A stretch of DNA of 64,000 nucleotides from Bacillota bacterium (GCA_963648435.1 CAVJDT010000003.1:14582-78581); one strand, 5' to 3'. Shown: positions 6,594 to 20,347, numbered from the stretch's first letter. Translations and numbers: made by a program. The notes: a model not told the origin generated them from the sequence alone.

Positions 6594-7262
6594 TTATACC
6601 ACACTAGCCACACGACTATGGTGTAAACCATCAATCTTTAAAGATTTTTTATCAGAAAGCACCAATATTTTAGAAATAGTATAATCATTTTTATCAAGCA
6701 ATTGCATAATCTTAGTATCTACTTTATCATCATCAATAGTAATTATTTGTTTTAATCCAACTTCATCATAAAGCATTCCCACTAACATTTCATCTAAATA
6801 GATAAAAACTAAGTCATGACATTCATCTTTATATTTTTGTTCAATATATAAAGATAATAACATTCCTTGTTTTAATTTTTGATTAAACATTTTAAAAAAT
6901 TCTTTTACTTCCATATATTGTAATTTATTTAAACACCATATTTTTAAATAATTCCACTTTTTTTGCTTTACTTCTTTTTTAATTGTCACAATTTTGTCAA
7001 CATTGTAATTAAACTTTAATAAAATTTCATTTTTAATATTATTTTTCTTATTACTTTCACTCCTGATATAAGCTTGATTATAGAAGTGAAATAACCAAAT
7101 TATCTTGGTTTTATTTTGATAATAAATTAATAAATTACGCATAACCTCATCATATAATGAAATTAAATCATCATTTTCCAAACAACATTGATTATTTTGA
7201 CTAATTATCCTAACTTCCCACTTTACTCTATTTCTAATAACCACAACATAAACTTCACTCAT
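6594..7262 (-). CDS. hypothetical soluble protein encoded within the pilus operon
   Basis: 222-aa ORF tightly packed between pilin genes (8-nt overlap upstream). No motif I recognise and no TM segment. Confidence 0.4.
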   Translation of the reverse strand: MSEVYVVVIRNRVKWEVRIISQNNQCCLENDDLISLYDEVMRNLLIYYQNKTKIIWLFHFYNQAYIRSESNKKNNIKNEILLKFNYNVDKIVTIKKEVKQKKWNYLKIWCLNKLQYMEVKEFFKMFNQKLKQGMLLSLYIEQKYKDECHDLVFIYLDEMLVGMLYDEVGLKQIITIDDDKVDTKIMQLLDKNDYTISKILVLSDKKSLKIDGLHHSRVASVV

Positions 7263-7677
7263 ATATCCACCTCACAAATAAATTATCTTGACCATTAATC
7301 CCATCAAACATTAATACTAAATAATTATTTTCAATTTTACATGAAAAATTATAAATTAATTTAAATTCATATTCCGCACCAAAGTAATTTTCACAAATTG
7401 CATTATTTTTCACCCACAAAGCTAACTTATCATCAACATATACTTCATATTGTTCATTTCCATATTTAAGAACTTTATTGTCGGTTTTTATATTATCGAC
7501 AGTCATTAATAAATGATAGGCTTTTATCAGTTCATTATAATAAGCCCGATCTTTTTCATATTTACCATCATAAGTATTATAAAGGCTTATAACCTTAATC
7601 ACCATCGTGCTAGCTAAACTAATCATTAAGATTGCTAGTATGACCTCTAAAATAGTGATTCCTTTTTCTTTTTTCAT
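7255..7677 (-). CDS. type IV pilin-like protein; first gene of the pilus operon
   Basis: MKKEKGITILEVILAILMISLAS: prepilin signal G|ITILE. RBS GGTGATG lies 4 nt upstream of the ATG. Confidence 0.6.
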   Translation of the reverse strand: MKKEKGITILEVILAILMISLASTMVIKVISLYNTYDGKYEKDRAYYNELIKAYHLLMTVDNIKTDNKVLKYGNEQYEVYVDDKLALWVKNNAICENYFGAEYEFKLIYNFSCKIENNYLVLMFDGINGQDNLFVRWIYE

Positions 7678-7726: not shown

Positions 7727-7873
7727 AAAAAACGTATTTCCGTTAGGAAAAAACGTATTTCCGTTAGGAAAAAACGTATTTCCGTTAGGAAAAAACGTAT
7801 TTCCGTTAGGAAAAAACGTATTTCCGTTAGGAAAAAACGTATTTCCGTTAGGAAAAAACGTATTTCCGTTAGG
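7727..7873. repeat. seven perfect tandem copies of a 21-bp unit, AAAAAACGTATTTCCGTTAGG
   Basis: Read directly from the sequence. Each unit contains AACG-N6-CGTT partial dyad symmetry. The array lies between the regulator gene stop and the pilus operon start, about 49 nt from the ATG at 7677. Confidence 0.95.
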
Positions 7874-7882
7874 AAATACGTT
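7853..7882 (-). terminator. rho-independent terminator of the LuxR-type gene, built from the last repeat unit
   Basis: Minus strand reads AACGTATTTCC-taac-GGAAATACGTT followed by TTTTTT (11-bp perfect stem). The 3' arm plus T-tract is the repeat unit itself. Confidence 0.7.
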
Positions 7883-9353
7883 ATTTATTAACATCACCAT
7901 ACTTTAAGATTAATTCAATTTTTGAATTAACCCCTAATTTTCGGTAAATATTTTTATAATGAAAATTAACTGAATCATACTTCATACTAAGTTCCCCCGC
8001 AATCTGCCTTAAAGTAAGACCTTCAATCAAAAAGTCAAATACAATCTTTTCTTTGGGGGTTAAAACCTCATTAGGGTCGATAATTACATCTTTGGTTTTT
8101 ATTTTATCAATGCTTTCAGGGGTACCACTTTTAATCTTTAAAACATTGATATATCCAAGAACATTGATAATAATTAAAATAACACCGATTAATGCATTCA
8201 TAATCATCATTGTAATCGCTATGGCTCTAGTATCAATATTCATTAAATATTTGCATAAAAAGACACTTGAAAAAGTAAAACAAATAGCACATAGTGATAC
8301 ATATAAAAGATTAAACTTTGATGCTTTATCATCTAGGACTTTAGCAATCAACATAAAAATAATGATATAACCTAAAGAACTTGAAAAGCCATATGCCAAA
8401 TCCGCGGCGTAACGCCAAAATGCTAAATTACTATCATAAGCAATATTGAATATTGTTAATTGATGAGCACCAAATAGTGACATAAAGTAAACAATAATAA
8501 GTAAAATTATAGCTTTTTTAGAATATAAGAAAGCAATAACCGTTACTAAACAACAAATTAAAAATCCAATATAATAGGTAGTAGAATAATATGATTTTGT
8601 TGCTTGAATGCCCCGCGTATGAACACTTAATTCAATGGCCCCCACAAAAGCTTGGTTCATGCAAACTACAAATAACATTCCAACTAACAATATCAATGAA
8701 TAATTTGGAACTTTTTCACTTTTATCGATTATTACAAAATAATCACTACAAAAAATAAATAATAAGTAAACAATTAAGGCTAAAAAAGAAGGCATATAAA
8801 TTCTTATAACTACTTCATTGGTAATTGCATTAAAATAAAAAGAATAACTAAAAAATAATAAGATAAGGATTAAACTAAATATTAATCGTTCACTCATTCC
8901 AAATGAATATAAAAATAAATTAACAATTAATCCAAAAATAAGGCCATAACCAAAGCCAAGTAACACTGAGCCTATAGTTAAACTTAAATTATTAAAGGAA
9001 TAATAACTAAATAAAATTCCCACAATTGCTAAGGGAGCAGAAATAAACTTAAAATATCTTAAAACTATTTGTTTAGAAACAACAACCACGATGATAATTG
9101 CAAACATTACCCCTAAAGCAATCCCAAATAATTGATAAATGTTTTCCGTAACATTTACATTTTCATAATCAAATAGTTTCATAAATCTAAAAATAAAATC
9201 AACTACTAGTAGTGATGAAAAGATTGATAAAAATATCGATTTTAAGGAAGGTTTAGTAAAATAAACCTTACTAGATTCCTTTTTACGATTAGCTAAAATT
9301 ACACTTAATTTCGAAAATACTTTCGTTATTTTCTTCTCTTTTTTAGTGTCCAT
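7881..9353 (-). CDS. polytopic membrane protein with a C-terminal LuxR/GerE-type HTH (membrane-embedded one-component regulator)
   Basis: About 12 predicted TM helices over the first ~400 aa. The C-terminus LTPKEKIVFDFLIEGLTLRQIAGELSMKYDSVNFHYKNIYRKLGVNSKIELI matches the LuxR HTH signature. Confidence 0.7.
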   Translation of the reverse strand: MDTKKEKKITKVFSKLSVILANRKKESSKVYFTKPSLKSIFLSIFSSLLVVDFIFRFMKLFDYENVNVTENIYQLFGIALGVMFAIIIVVVVSKQIVLRYFKFISAPLAIVGILFSYYSFNNLSLTIGSVLLGFGYGLIFGLIVNLFLYSFGMSERLIFSLILILLFFSYSFYFNAITNEVVIRIYMPSFLALIVYLLFIFCSDYFVIIDKSEKVPNYSLILLVGMLFVVCMNQAFVGAIELSVHTRGIQATKSYYSTTYYIGFLICCLVTVIAFLYSKKAIILLIIVYFMSLFGAHQLTIFNIAYDSNLAFWRYAADLAYGFSSSLGYIIIFMLIAKVLDDKASKFNLLYVSLCAICFTFSSVFLCKYLMNIDTRAIAITMMIMNALIGVILIIINVLGYINVLKIKSGTPESIDKIKTKDVIIDPNEVLTPKEKIVFDFLIEGLTLRQIAGELSMKYDSVNFHYKNIYRKLGVNSKIELILKYGDVNK

Positions 9354-15638: not shown

Positions 15639-15878
15639 ATTATCTTTTTCCCTTCATTGCTTAAAAAAAGTTCCCATGCCTAAGCATAGGAACGAATAAA
15701 TCGCGGTACCATCCTAATTTGTAGTTACATAACCACACACTTAATTAGTTATAACGTAACTACCGGGAATTGTTAATTCCTCTCAAAAGGAGCTTCAATA
15801 CGAGTAATCTAGTTTTTCACCAACCAACTAGTCTCTAAAATTTACTCTATATTTACTAATCTTTATCATCGATTTGTA
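15639..15878 (-). promoter_or_regulatory. T-box riboswitch leader of alaS
   Basis: Minus strand carries the T-box AATTAGGATGGTACCGCG (~15703-15720) with the UGGU bulge. The terminator is GTTCCtatgcttaggcatGGGAAC plus seven T's (~15664-15694). Stem I has AGAGA motifs, and a GCU triplet sits in GAAGCUCC (~15792). Confidence 0.7.
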
Positions 15879-18800
15879 TTATGCTGCTTGTTCTTCTTTA
15901 GAAACTGCGGCAGCTTTTTCTTTTTCAGCAGCTTTTTGTTTAGCTAGTTTTTCTTTTTCAAGAGCTTTTTGTTTAGCTAACTTTTCTTTTTCTTTTTCAG
16001 CAGCTTTTTGTTTAGCTAGTTTTTCTTTTTCAAGAGCTTTTTGTTTAGCTAACTTTTCTTTTTCTTTTTCAGCAGCTTTTTGTTTAGCTAGTTTTTCTTT
16101 TTCAAGAGCTTTTTGTTTAGCTAACTTTTCTTTTTCTTTTTCAGCAGCTTTTTGTTTAGCTAGTTTTTCTTTTTCAAGAGCTTTTTGTTTAGCTAACTTT
16201 TCTTTTTCTTTTTCAGCAGCTTTTTGTTTTGCAAGTTTTTCTTTTTCAAGAGCTAACGCGGCATCTTTACGAGCTTTTTCTTCAGCTGCGGCTTGTAATT
16301 TAGCTTCTTTTTCAGCTTGAGCTGCTGCCATTTCAGCTTGTTTACGAGCTTTTTCTTCTTCAACTGCTTTTTGTTTTTCAGCTTTAATTGCATCTTTTTC
16401 AGCTTGTTTACGAGCTTTTTCTTCTTCAATTAATCTTTGCTTTTCAGCATCTAATTCTTCATAGTATGCAATTGAATTCTTAATAATGTTCTTAACTAGT
16501 TTTTCATCTAATTCGCCTTTATTAACTAATCTAAACCATTGTTCGCCCTTAGGACTAGTAGCTTTAACAATTGTTCCAGGATATTCAACAATTAGAGGGA
16601 AAGCTTTTTCTTGATTACTACAGAAAGTAATACGATAATCATTATTAGTTGACATAGTAATTAAGAATAATCTCTTACCAAAGAAATATCTACTAATGTT
16701 GCCTTTTGCATTTGGAACAACTTTAATTTCTTTATTAGGAATAGTTGATGCATATTTAACAACTTTTTCATATGAAGGTTTAAATACTTTTTTCTTCTTT
16801 AATTTTTCACGAGCTTCTTTTTCTTTTTCTTTAGCTATTCTTTCAGCTTCTCTTTCAGCTTCAGCTTTTCTAAGTGAATCAAGTTCTTCTAATTCTTTAG
16901 CAACTCTTGCATCTTCTGCTGCTTTTGCTTCTTCTGCCACTTTTGCTTCTTCTGCCGCTTTTGCTTCTTCTGCTAGTCTTGCTTCTTCTGCCGCTTTTGC
17001 AATTTCAGCTTGTCTTGCTTCTTCAGCTAGTCTTGCTTCTTCTGCCGCTTTTGCTTCTTCTTCAAGTCTTGCAAGTTCAGCTTGATGGGCAGCTTCTACT
17101 GCTTTTGCTTCTTCTTCAAGTCTTGCAAGTTCAGCCGCATGATCAGCACGACGTTTTTCCTCAGCTTCTCTTAATGTTGCAAGTTCTTCTTTTTCAGCTT
17201 GACGTTCAGCTTCTACTACTTTTGCCTCTTCTTCAAGTCTTGCTACTTCTGCTTGATGAGTTTCTTCAGTAGTTTTTGCAACTTCTTCAAGTCTTGCTAC
17301 TTCTGCTTGATGAGCTTCTTTTTCAGCCTTTGCAACTTCTTCAAGTCTTGCAATTTCAGCTTGATGAGTTTCTTCAGTAGTTTTTGCAACTTCTTCAAGT
17401 CTTGCTACTTCTGCTTGATGAGCTTCTTTTTCAGCCTTTGCAACTTCTTCAAGTCTTGCAATTTCAGCTTGATGAGTTTCTTCAGTAGTTTTTGCAACTT
17501 CTTCAAGTCTTGCTACTTCTGCTTGATGAGCTTCTTTTTCAGCCTTTGCAACTTCTTCAAGTCTTGCAATTTCAGCTTGATGAGTTTCTTCAGTAGTTTT
17601 TGCAACTTCTTCAAGTCTTGCTACTTCTGCTTGATGATTAGCTTCTGCAGCTTTAGCTTCTTCAAATAGTCTTGTTACTTCTGCTTGATGATTAGCTTCT
17701 GCAGCTTTTGCTTCTTCAGATAGTCTTGCACATTCTGCTTGATGAGCTTCTTTTTCAGCTTTAGCTTCTTCAGATAATCTTGCTACTTCTGCTTGATGAT
17801 TAGCTTCTGCAGCTTTTGCTTCTTCCTCAAGTCTTGCGCATTCTGCTTGATGAACTTCTTTTTCAGTTTTAGCTTCTTCAGATAGTCTTGCAAGTTCAAC
17901 TTCATAAGCTTTTTTAGCTTCACGTAATTTTTCAAGTTCAATGTGTTCTGCAATACGCTCAGCTTCTGCTCTTCTTAAAGCATCAAGTTCAGCACGGTCT
18001 GCACGACGTTCAGCTTCAGAAGTTCTTAAATATTCAAGTTCAGCATGTTCAACGCGATGTTTTTCTTCAGCTTTTCTTAAAGCATCAAGTTCAGCTTTAC
18101 TTTCTGGGCTCATTACTTCAACTACTTTTTCAATTACTTCAGGAACATATTCAGCTTTTTCTTTTGCAAAAGCAATTTTTTCCGCATTCAATGTTGCTTT
18201 TTCATTTTCAAGTGTATTTCTTTCTTCAGTAACTTTATTTTGTTCACTAACATATTCTAATTGCATTTGAGCAAGTAAAACTTGTAAATGAGCTAATTTA
18301 TCTTGTAGTGCAACTACTCTAGCATCTAATACCGGAGGTTTTTCTTGTTCTTCAGCGATACTCTTCTTTAATTCTTCGATTTCTATTTCAAGTGCTGTTT
18401 TCATGCTTTCAATCACCTCAATTTCATGTCTTAAAGTTTCTAATTCATCGTTTTCTAAACCACATAATCCTAATTGGTCTCTTGTATAAGTAAATAATTG
18501 TTCAAGAATATGTTGTTCAGCTTTATCATATTCTTTCTTATGAGCTTCAATAAAATCTTTAATTAAACGTGTTCTTGATTCAACTGAATATTCAGGATTT
18601 AATTTATATAATTTAACCATTGATAATACATGTAAACCAGTAATTAAACCACCAAATACAATTGGAATAATCAAGAAAAATACCGATGAATTAAAGGTTG
18701 TGCTTCCTTTAACTAAAGCAACATATTTATTTCCCATATCATTCATATAGAATAATAATCCTATGAATACGAGTGCAACAACTGTATCAATTAGCATCAT

Positions 18801-19214
18801 TTCATTTTTACTAAATGTTACCACAAACTTATATAATTGATGAGATACAACTACAATACTAACAAATAATAATGAGCAAACCATCACATTAATAATCCAA
18901 TGGGTTGTCGTATAAGGATCAGTTGATCTCACAAGCATCATTAAACCATCAAATAACAACGCAGCCATTGTAGTAAAAATCGGCATATAACAAGCTACTG
19001 TTGTATAACGTAATGATGGACGATAATTACGATATTTAGTTGATAAATTTATTAAAAATAAAACTAATGAAATAATTGGTAAAACTATTGCTTTTAAAAT
19101 TATTTCAACACGAGGTACTCCACTTAATCCCCAAGGAATGCAAATTGCAAAAGCAATAGCAACGGAAATCATACTATTTATAAACATTACTTTCTTTTCT
19201 CTACTATTTAACAT
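15879..19214 (-). CDS. large membrane-anchored coiled-coil repeat protein (N-terminal polytopic domain, two tandem-repeat arrays, central globular domain)
   Basis: Residues 1-300 form ~8 TM helices. Residues ~440-740 are 18-aa ARLEEVAK(T/A)..HQAE(V/I) repeats. Residues ~770-880 are a non-repetitive domain (..ISRYFFGKRLFLITMSTNNDYRITFCSNQ..). Residues ~990-1100 are 24-aa EKEKEKLAKQKALEKEKLAKQKAA repeats. Confidence 0.6.
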   Translation of the reverse strand: MLNSREKKVMFINSMISVAIAFAICIPWGLSGVPRVEIILKAIVLPIISLVLFLINLSTKYRNYRPSLRYTTVACYMPIFTTMAALLFDGLMMLVRSTDPYTTTHWIINVMVCSLLFVSIVVVSHQLYKFVVTFSKNEMMLIDTVVALVFIGLLFYMNDMGNKYVALVKGSTTFNSSVFFLIIPIVFGGLITGLHVLSMVKLYKLNPEYSVESRTRLIKDFIEAHKKEYDKAEQHILEQLFTYTRDQLGLCGLENDELETLRHEIEVIESMKTALEIEIEELKKSIAEEQEKPPVLDARVVALQDKLAHLQVLLAQMQLEYVSEQNKVTEERNTLENEKATLNAEKIAFAKEKAEYVPEVIEKVVEVMSPESKAELDALRKAEEKHRVEHAELEYLRTSEAERRADRAELDALRRAEAERIAEHIELEKLREAKKAYEVELARLSEEAKTEKEVHQAECARLEEEAKAAEANHQAEVARLSEEAKAEKEAHQAECARLSEEAKAAEANHQAEVTRLFEEAKAAEANHQAEVARLEEVAKTTEETHQAEIARLEEVAKAEKEAHQAEVARLEEVAKTTEETHQAEIARLEEVAKAEKEAHQAEVARLEEVAKTTEETHQAEIARLEEVAKAEKEAHQAEVARLEEVAKTTEETHQAEVARLEEEAKVVEAERQAEKEELATLREAEEKRRADHAAELARLEEEAKAVEAAHQAELARLEEEAKAAEEARLAEEARQAEIAKAAEEARLAEEAKAAEEAKVAEEAKAAEDARVAKELEELDSLRKAEAEREAERIAKEKEKEAREKLKKKKVFKPSYEKVVKYASTIPNKEIKVVPNAKGNISRYFFGKRLFLITMSTNNDYRITFCSNQEKAFPLIVEYPGTIVKATSPKGEQWFRLVNKGELDEKLVKNIIKNSIAYYEELDAEKQRLIEEEKARKQAEKDAIKAEKQKAVEEEKARKQAEMAAAQAEKEAKLQAAAEEKARKDAALALEKEKLAKQKAAEKEKEKLAKQKALEKEKLAKQKAAEKEKEKLAKQKALEKEKLAKQKAAEKEKEKLAKQKALEKEKLAKQKAAEKEKEKLAKQKALEKEKLAKQKAAEKEKAAAVSKEEQAA
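15935..16230. repeat. about four tandem copies of a 72-bp intragenic repeat (encodes the C-terminal EKEKLAKQKA array)
   Basis: Unit AGCAGCTTTTTGTTTAGCTAGTTTTTCTTTTTCAAGAGCTTTTTGTTTAGCTAACTTTTCTTTTTCTTTTTC repeats near-perfectly. Confidence 0.85.
16990..17900. repeat. intragenic tandem array of 54/108-bp units (encodes the ARLEE..HQAE coiled-coil repeats)
   Basis: TTCTTCAAGTCTTGC(T/A)A(C/T)TTC(T/A)GCTTGATGAG(C/T)TTCTT..TTTGCAAC repeats ~3.5 times with near-perfect identity between ~17280 and 17640. More degenerate copies flank it. Confidence 0.8.
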
Positions 19215-20222: not shown

Positions 20223-20347
20223 ACATTCACTCCCTTGAAAAAATCAACCGATTTTACTATATTTTTTAGCATTTTATACATCTATTATATCATAAACCAA
20301 AAATATTGTAAAATGATTAATACTTTTTTTTACAATTTTTCTTTATT

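Follow-up and report, generated by a model that had tools for sequence, protein, structure and literature searches.

Streptococcal M protein, alpha C protein and the mycoplasma Vlp/Vsa proteins carry in-frame, near-perfect repeats that encode charged helical modules and whose recombination drives size variation. TolA, which is held by one transmembrane helix, has a periplasmic spacer. In Escherichia coli, the copy number of the in-frame repeats in tolA varies by strain, their contraction is RecA-dependent and a wide range of repeat numbers is tolerated (PMC3477136). Here, we analyse a gene with in-frame tandem repeats in a 64,000-nucleotide (nt) stretch of DNA from an uncultured human-gut Bacillota bacterium (GCA_963648435.1, CAVJDT010000003.1:14582-78581), which at its full length is called the window. 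The gene lies next to alaS and encodes a protein of 1111 amino acids (aa), hereafter the repeat protein. Its repeats are unexceptional: they form a coding repeat of probably variable length, a familiar type of which the tolA tract is an example. Like TolA, whose long, Ala/Lys/Glu-rich alpha-helical spacer (domain II) is built from in-frame repeats (PMC3477136), the protein combines a membrane anchor with a long helical spacer of such origin. It differs in having six helices in the anchor, a predicted cytoplasmic spacer and much longer repeat units (54–108 base pairs, bp). No TolA model appeared in the Pfam or NCBIfam output for the repeat protein, and there is no sequence relationship between the two.

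A further parallel is provided by Borg elements, in which recent and near-perfect in-frame repeats are reported to arise independently in related genomes and to add low-complexity segments (PMC9879509). Borg repeats are a genome-wide feature of archaeal extrachromosomal elements, whereas here two arrays occupy a single bacterial chromosomal gene. We interpret these arrays as recent, in-frame, variable-number tandem repeats that encode two low-complexity helical segments of a membrane-anchored, cytoplasm-facing protein, putatively a tether, and we give this reading a probability of roughly 0.6.

Tandem arrays within one reading frame

The initial annotation of this DNA had described about four copies of a 72-bp unit at 15935–16230, about 3.5 near-identical copies of a 108-bp unit at around 17280–17640 and more diverged copies nearby, all of them keeping the reading frame. 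Each of these statements was borne out by the positions and unit lengths listed in Table 1. The 72-bp copies lie inside a perfectly periodic tract and the 108-bp copies inside a perfectly periodic core; the diverged copies correspond to units of 54, 66 and 51 bp, and the arrays reach somewhat further than had been noted. A unit-by-unit listing revealed that each 108-bp unit consists of two 54-bp halves, VARLEEVAKTTEETHQAE and IARLEEVAKAEKEAHQAE. Three of the 108-bp units are 100% identical in DNA, and three and a half differ by one base. The core is flanked by diverged 54-bp units, five of them at 17625–17894 and more down to about 16927. At the other array, three 72-bp units are base-for-base identical on the coding strand, and the unit encodes 24 aa (11+13) of the basic tail, EKEKLAKQKAAEKEKEKLAKQKAL. 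The identity between repeat units extends to synonymous sites. Motif counts in orthologues put the copy number of the 66-bp unit in relatives at 1–3.

Among all exact recurring 30-mers of the window, 711 of 832 start positions fall in the repeat gene, which excludes chance as an explanation for the repeats. The unit lengths of 51, 54, 66, 72 and 108 bp are all multiples of 3, and the single open reading frame (ORF) is intact over its 1111 aa. The arrays are thus confirmed as in-frame, head-to-tail, near-identical coding tandem repeats.

Five plus-strand ORFs of 109–156 aa overlap the arrays (15874–16320, 16696–17085, 16907–17272, 17199–17669 and 17941–18270). These were rejected as genes: they represent antisense read-through of the repeats, and relatives match the minus-strand product.

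Anchor, rod and head domain

The repeat protein is composed, in this order, of a six-helix anchor, an acidic helical spacer, a YjbR-like domain and a basic Lys/Glu/Ala-rich tail. Neither the whole protein nor its parts gave a match above threshold in Pfam, NCBIfam or PADLOC, and word-indexed protein searches, whether they used the N-terminal domain, the globular domain or a profile of 32 sequences, recovered no more than a few fragments from the ends of contigs, none of them named.

An AlphaFold2 model of the hydrophobic anchor, based on 23 family sequences, reached a predicted local distance difference test (pLDDT) score of 90.9 and features six transmembrane helices followed by a seventh, juxtamembrane helix. 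With the helices taken from this model, the loops on the N-terminal side contain on average 12.0 Lys and Arg residues, as opposed to 3.3 on the opposite side, and this bias is present in 23 of 23 family sequences. Six helices with a positive-inside bias predict that the rod, head and tail are all located in the cytoplasm. The best-conserved loop motifs of the anchor (KYRNYRP, FSKNEMMLID and NPEY) are found on the predicted cytoplasmic face. A search of the PDB gave no specific structural neighbour of the anchor domain.

A second line of evidence comes from a paralogue that lies 21 nt upstream of the repeat gene and carries a C-terminal Cys4 zinc ribbon. Its membrane domain can be aligned with the anchor of the repeat protein (BLASTP expectation value (E) 1e-14, 22% identity over 288 aa). 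The relative P0028 carries a zinc ribbon and a YjbR-like domain on one chain with no membrane helix between them. The zinc ribbon is therefore on the side of the YjbR-like domain, which agrees with the cytoplasmic topology. The paralogue-type anchor is itself fused to a YjbR-like domain in P0020, P0024 and P0028.

This topology bears on the description of the repeats, in the initial annotation, as part of a stalk. If that word is taken to mean a surface structure, it conflicts with the cytoplasmic location predicted from the loop charge bias and the six helices. The corresponding alternative is that the protein is a surface-exposed, size-variable stalk or adhesin of a wall-less cell, subject to antigenic or size variation as are M protein and mycoplasma Vlp/Vsa. 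Such surface proteins are typically long, charged and helical and contain perfect in-frame repeats, the organism is labelled Mollicutes/Bacilli at NCBI, and NCBIfam returned a compositional match (E 7e-7) to EntB, a cell-wall-binding protein, although its score is far below the cut-off. However, known surface repeat proteins undergo export and are held at the wall or by a lipid, whereas the repeat protein, with neither a signal peptide nor an LPxTG motif, has a predicted cytoplasm-facing orientation. Besides the charge bias, the shared side of the Cys4 zinc ribbon in the paralogue and in the P0028 fusion, the position of the conserved loops and a head whose fold is that of YjbR proteins, themselves small, soluble and unanchored, all argue against surface exposure, which we consider very unlikely.

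The cytoplasm-facing protein that we favour would expose a long acidic rod (aa 206–805) that is Ala/Glu-rich and has a net charge of about −66 (−32 over aa 441–674). It begins with the juxtamembrane helix and a non-repetitive helical segment that closes with the conserved EYVPEV motif (aa 355–360); 18-aa units are then supplied by the 54/108-bp array. There is no Pro or Gly residue in the 435 aa between positions 371 and 805, and none in the tail, so the arrays likely form a long alpha-helical rod. The initial annotation had gone further and proposed a coiled coil. In neither array did we find the 3.5-residue hydrophobic periodicity of a canonical heptad (Fourier power at 3.5 of 0.02–0.05), and the peaks of the 18-aa array at 3.6 and 3.0 residues are harmonics of 18. 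Pro/Gly-free alpha-helical rod is therefore a safer wording than coiled coil.

The head (aa 806–922) yielded a model with a pLDDT of 78 and a predicted template modelling score of 0.72. A profile built from 32 family sequences reached 2a1v (E 0.031) and 2fki (E 0.13) over the full length of both. Sub-threshold matches to the Pfam YjbR model were found in 14 of the 32 relatives (best E 1.2e-4), and the distant relative P0099 alone passes its gathering threshold (30.4 versus 30.1 bits). Model and profile together assign the head to the CyaY-like alpha/beta 'double-wing' fold. This is the fold of the MmcQ/YjbR family (PF04237; E. coli YjbR, 2fki, and Deinococcus radiodurans DR2400, 2a1v), for which DNA binding via the double-wing surface has been predicted (PMC7641849). 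The net charge of the domain is +10 in the window, averages +5 in the family and is positive in 83% of 82 domains. In contrast to YjbR proteins, which are small, soluble and without an anchor, the domain here caps a 600-aa rod that extends from a polytopic anchor, and a repeat tail follows it. Separately, P0092 and P0099 are soluble proteins in which an N-terminal DUF2357 domain precedes 2–3 copies of the YjbR-like domain.

The tail (aa 923–1111) is rich in Lys, Glu and Ala and carries a net charge of about +18 (+18 over aa 990–1100). Whatever the tail length, 14 of 18 proteins of the subfamily with the KYRNYRP loop end in -E-x-A-A-COOH (EEQAA, EEKAA, EEEAA and similar). This end is similar to the Ala-Ala proteolysis tags found at the C-terminus in ssrA-type degrons. 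Speculatively, the whole protein would most likely act as a membrane tether: its putative nucleic-acid- or polyanion-binding head and its basic tail would be kept away from the membrane by a distance that can vary.

Repeat number in related genomes

Orthologous loci were fetched via the adjacent alaS and by a scan of species-representative genomes; all came from human-gut metagenome-assembled genomes (MAGs) labelled Bacilli or Mollicutes. Intact alleles were obtained from seven independent contigs of the sister species UMGS75; they measure 901, 902, 918, 965, 985, 998 and 1014 aa. Among the four UMGS75 assemblies that were compared, alaS is 99.7–100% identical (87.5% to the window) and the non-repeat parts of the gene are 99.9–100% identical; the length changes in the UMGS75 alleles are confined to the arrays and proceed by whole repeat units. 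The segment from EYVPEV to KELEELD measures 208, 226, 244, 280, 280 and 298 aa in six UMGS75 alleles, which corresponds to 208+18n with n = 0, 1, 2, 4, 4 and 5. The equivalent segment of the window, at 418 aa, fits n = 12 after allowing for a 6-aa indel. The C-terminal segment spans 159–218 aa in six UMGS75 alleles, with steps that combine 11, 13, 22 and 24 aa. As assembled, the related genomes thus do not all have the same repeat number but differ by whole units.

The initial annotation had expected the length to vary between strains in steps of 24 or 36 aa. For the variation itself, the UMGS75 assemblies with their whole-unit differences speak in favour, although they are short-read assemblies in which length tracks the assembler. 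As to the steps, 24 aa does occur among those of the tail, but the central array moves by 18 aa (54 bp) and not only by 36 aa.

Variation is also apparent beyond UMGS75. In L001, a near-identical strain (alaS 99.96% identical), the 72-bp array is made up of other unit variants, the alleles of a third species are 872 and 876 aa long, and in the distant relative L002 some 45 aa follow the globular domain, compared to 182 aa in the window. All these species retain the short motif EYVPEV(I/V)E, which separates the first helical segment from the variable region. In two Hadza-derived species (L016, 5649–8546; L017, 5691–8546), the protein contains two tandem YjbR-like domains, and its coiled region is of a different kind, rich in Glu, Lys, Leu and Gln and with 14-aa repeats of its own.

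The non-repeat DNA of the gene is only 90–93% identical to that of the sister species, whereas the units within the window are 99–100% identical to one another, which indicates that they were duplicated or homogenised after the species split. We infer that the units arose through recent duplication and homogenisation and that the arrays grow and shrink via unequal homologous recombination or replication slippage, both of which would be favoured by perfect homology tracts of 244–279 nt. A single event would then add or remove whole helical modules of 18 aa (~2.7 nm, if fully helical) or of 11, 13 or 24 aa (~3.6 nm for 24 aa) and leave the frame intact. The protein would tolerate such changes because rod and tail would serve as spacer and charge modules rather than as folded domains.

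The initial annotation had also flagged the arrays as a likely site of assembly collapse, and the related contigs agree with this. Among the three closest species, half of the 20 contigs stop within an array or are interrupted there by a gap of 100 Ns (L001, L006, L007, L010, L011-L013, L022, L023 and L026), and one more, L020, stops some 100 nt away from an array. For short-read assembly of these gut MAGs, the locus is therefore a point of breakage or collapse, and the gene length in the window is not to be trusted without long reads.

This raises the alternative that the arrays exist but that their copy numbers and length differences result from collapse or expansion during assembly, each species having one fixed length. 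The broken and gapped contigs would be expected on this view, the perfect tracts of 316 and 387 nt exceed both k-mers of at most 141 nt and 150-nt reads, allele length follows the assembler, and a collection of 15 billion proteins has no entry identical to the 1111-aa protein. However, the alleles differ by unit-specific substitutions and not in count alone (EEAKVTEEAHQ in L004 versus EEAKVTEETHQ in L018; KHKAAE units in L001). Three independent assemblies (L008, L009 and L024) share an identical central array and have different tails, the same contig alleles were seen again in 2–4 samples, and the species-level differences in tail length are large and consistent. We therefore regard a pure assembly artefact as unlikely, though it retains appreciable weight; part of the apparent length variation may nevertheless be assembler collapse.

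Against our reading of recent, length-variable repeats in a putative cytoplasmic tether stand several points, some of which concern copy number and others the protein. All comparison alleles come from short-read metagenome assemblies. The shortest were produced by MEGAHIT (k-mer size (k) 119–141; 901–918 aa) and the longest by SPAdes (985–1014 aa), and the exact internal repeats of the intact assembled alleles are at most 102 nt, which is below the assembler k-mer wherever k is known; short exact repeats together with an assembler-linked length mean that some of the apparent variation could stem from collapse or from survivor bias. The 316- and 387-nt perfect tracts of the window lie beyond short-read graphs, so its copy numbers need long-read confirmation. 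A second intact allele of the window's species was not found: a metagenome scan with the globular domain gave no contig of this species, and the only other contig of the species is broken inside the 72-bp array. The window's own head domain has no YjbR match in Pfam even at E 10 and stays below every Pfam threshold, and DNA binding by the YjbR family is a structure-based prediction only (PMC7641849). Finally, the tail is Glu-rich and only mildly basic, with a net charge of +17 to +18 in about 185 aa.

Neighbouring genes and the wider family

The features of the repeat gene and its surroundings are collected in Table 1.

Table 1. Coordinates of the repeat gene, its parts and adjoining features, counted from the first letter of the window.
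Feature	Position	Strand	Details
Upstream paralogue, 328 aa	19236–20222	−	Six-helix anchor and C-terminal Cys4 zinc ribbon (Pfam Zn_Ribbon_1)
Repeat gene, complete, 1111 aa	15879–19214	−	ORF list, translation; syntenic orthologues upstream of alaS in related MAGs
N-terminal membrane domain, aa 1–205	18600–19214	−	Six transmembrane helices, predicted N-in/C-in
Conserved juxtamembrane helix (NPEY ... EYDKAE..IL) and non-repetitive helical segment	18135–18599	−	Orthologue alignment, anchor positions
Diverged 51-bp repeat	17947–18095	−	Tandem Repeats Finder: 2.9 copies; ELDALRKAE... units
54-bp array	16927–17879	−	Tandem Repeats Finder: 17.5 copies, 76% matches; 18-aa units of the Ala/Glu-rich acidic rod
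108-bp array	17221–17866		Tandem Repeats Finder: 6.0 copies, 90% matches
Perfectly periodic 108-bp core	17251–17637	−	387 nt, 3.58 units; 279-nt exact self-match at offset 108
Globular domain, aa 806–922	16449–16799	−	Modelled YjbR/'double-wing' (CyaY-like) fold
66-bp repeat	16331–16456	−	Tandem Repeats Finder: 1.9 copies; EKQRLIEEEKARKQAEKDAIKA-type unit
72-bp array	15914–16254	−	Tandem Repeats Finder: 4.7 copies, 99% matches
Perfectly periodic 72-bp tract	15914–16229	−	316 nt, 4.39 units; 244-nt exact self-match
C-terminal EEQAA	15882–15896	−	
alaS T-box leader	15685–15878	−	Rfam RF00230, 114 bits

No terminator was found between the paralogue and the repeat gene, and a promoter-like site precedes the paralogue (20284–20312, minus strand); the two genes are probably co-transcribed. 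On the other side, the T-box leader of alaS begins one base past the repeat gene's stop codon. The interval from the 72-bp array to this leader is free of promoter-like sites, the only strong one being that upstream of the paralogue. alaS may thus be read through from the repeat gene and the paralogue, gated by the T-box. Such read-through would fit an expression switch in which repeat number turns the repeat gene or the downstream alaS operon on or off. alaS, however, is under its own T-box control, the ORF is open in all nine intact alleles from the sister species, and units of 54, 66, 72 and 108 bp, all multiples of 3, never shift the frame. Phase variation was rejected on the last of these grounds, and we consider a switch of any kind extremely unlikely.

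Elsewhere in the window, a perfect 21-bp tandem repeat with about 7 copies (AAAAAACGTATTTCCGTTAGG) occupies 7727–7876. It is located between the stop codon of a GerE/LuxR-type gene (7881–9353, minus strand) and the first gene of a comG/type-II-secretion-like pilus operon (7255–7677, minus strand). The sister species has one terminator-like hairpin at the equivalent position, where the gap measures 69 nt compared to 203 nt in the window, which indicates that a terminator hairpin was amplified in tandem in the window.

Returning to the repeat protein, a profile search of 1.84 billion representative proteins placed it in a family of 85 clusters (50% identity). Most clusters share a plan of about six helices in the first ~200 aa, an acidic spacer of 48–300 aa, a YjbR-like domain and a tail. 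The tail of the family measures 0–298 aa, consists of Lys, Glu and Ala, and is basic or neutral. The spacer of the window protein, at 607 aa, is by far the longest among the membrane-anchored representatives. Many members have unrelated tandem repeats of their own in the spacer or tail. In the P0041 cluster, in which the repeats are perfect, members range from 694 to 764 aa, whereas in the P0034 cluster, in which they are degenerate, 15 of 15 listed members are 812 aa long. In the sources checked, the only name given to family members was 'plectin, putative', a compositional mislabel; the family is without a function-bearing name or curated model in these sources.

A bolder proposal would combine these features into an undescribed family of adjustable-length cytoplasmic tethers in uncultured gut Bacilli/Mollicutes, of which the repeat gene and its paralogue would both be members. 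Its proteins would serve as rulers between the nucleoid or RNA and the membrane, presenting a double-wing DNA-binding head and a basic tail up to ~90 nm out from a six-helix anchor on an acidic helical rod whose length is reset by repeat recombination, with -E-x-A-A as a possible proteolytic tag. We consider this proposal quite unlikely as it stands.

The locus would serve as a high-resolution strain marker for this lineage. The analysis also draws attention to a protein family without a named function, in which a six-helix anchor is followed by an acidic spacer, then by a YjbR-like domain and finally by a basic tail. Its member in the window suggests that large, recent, length-variable repeats are possible in a cytoplasmic spacer, and not in surface antigens alone.

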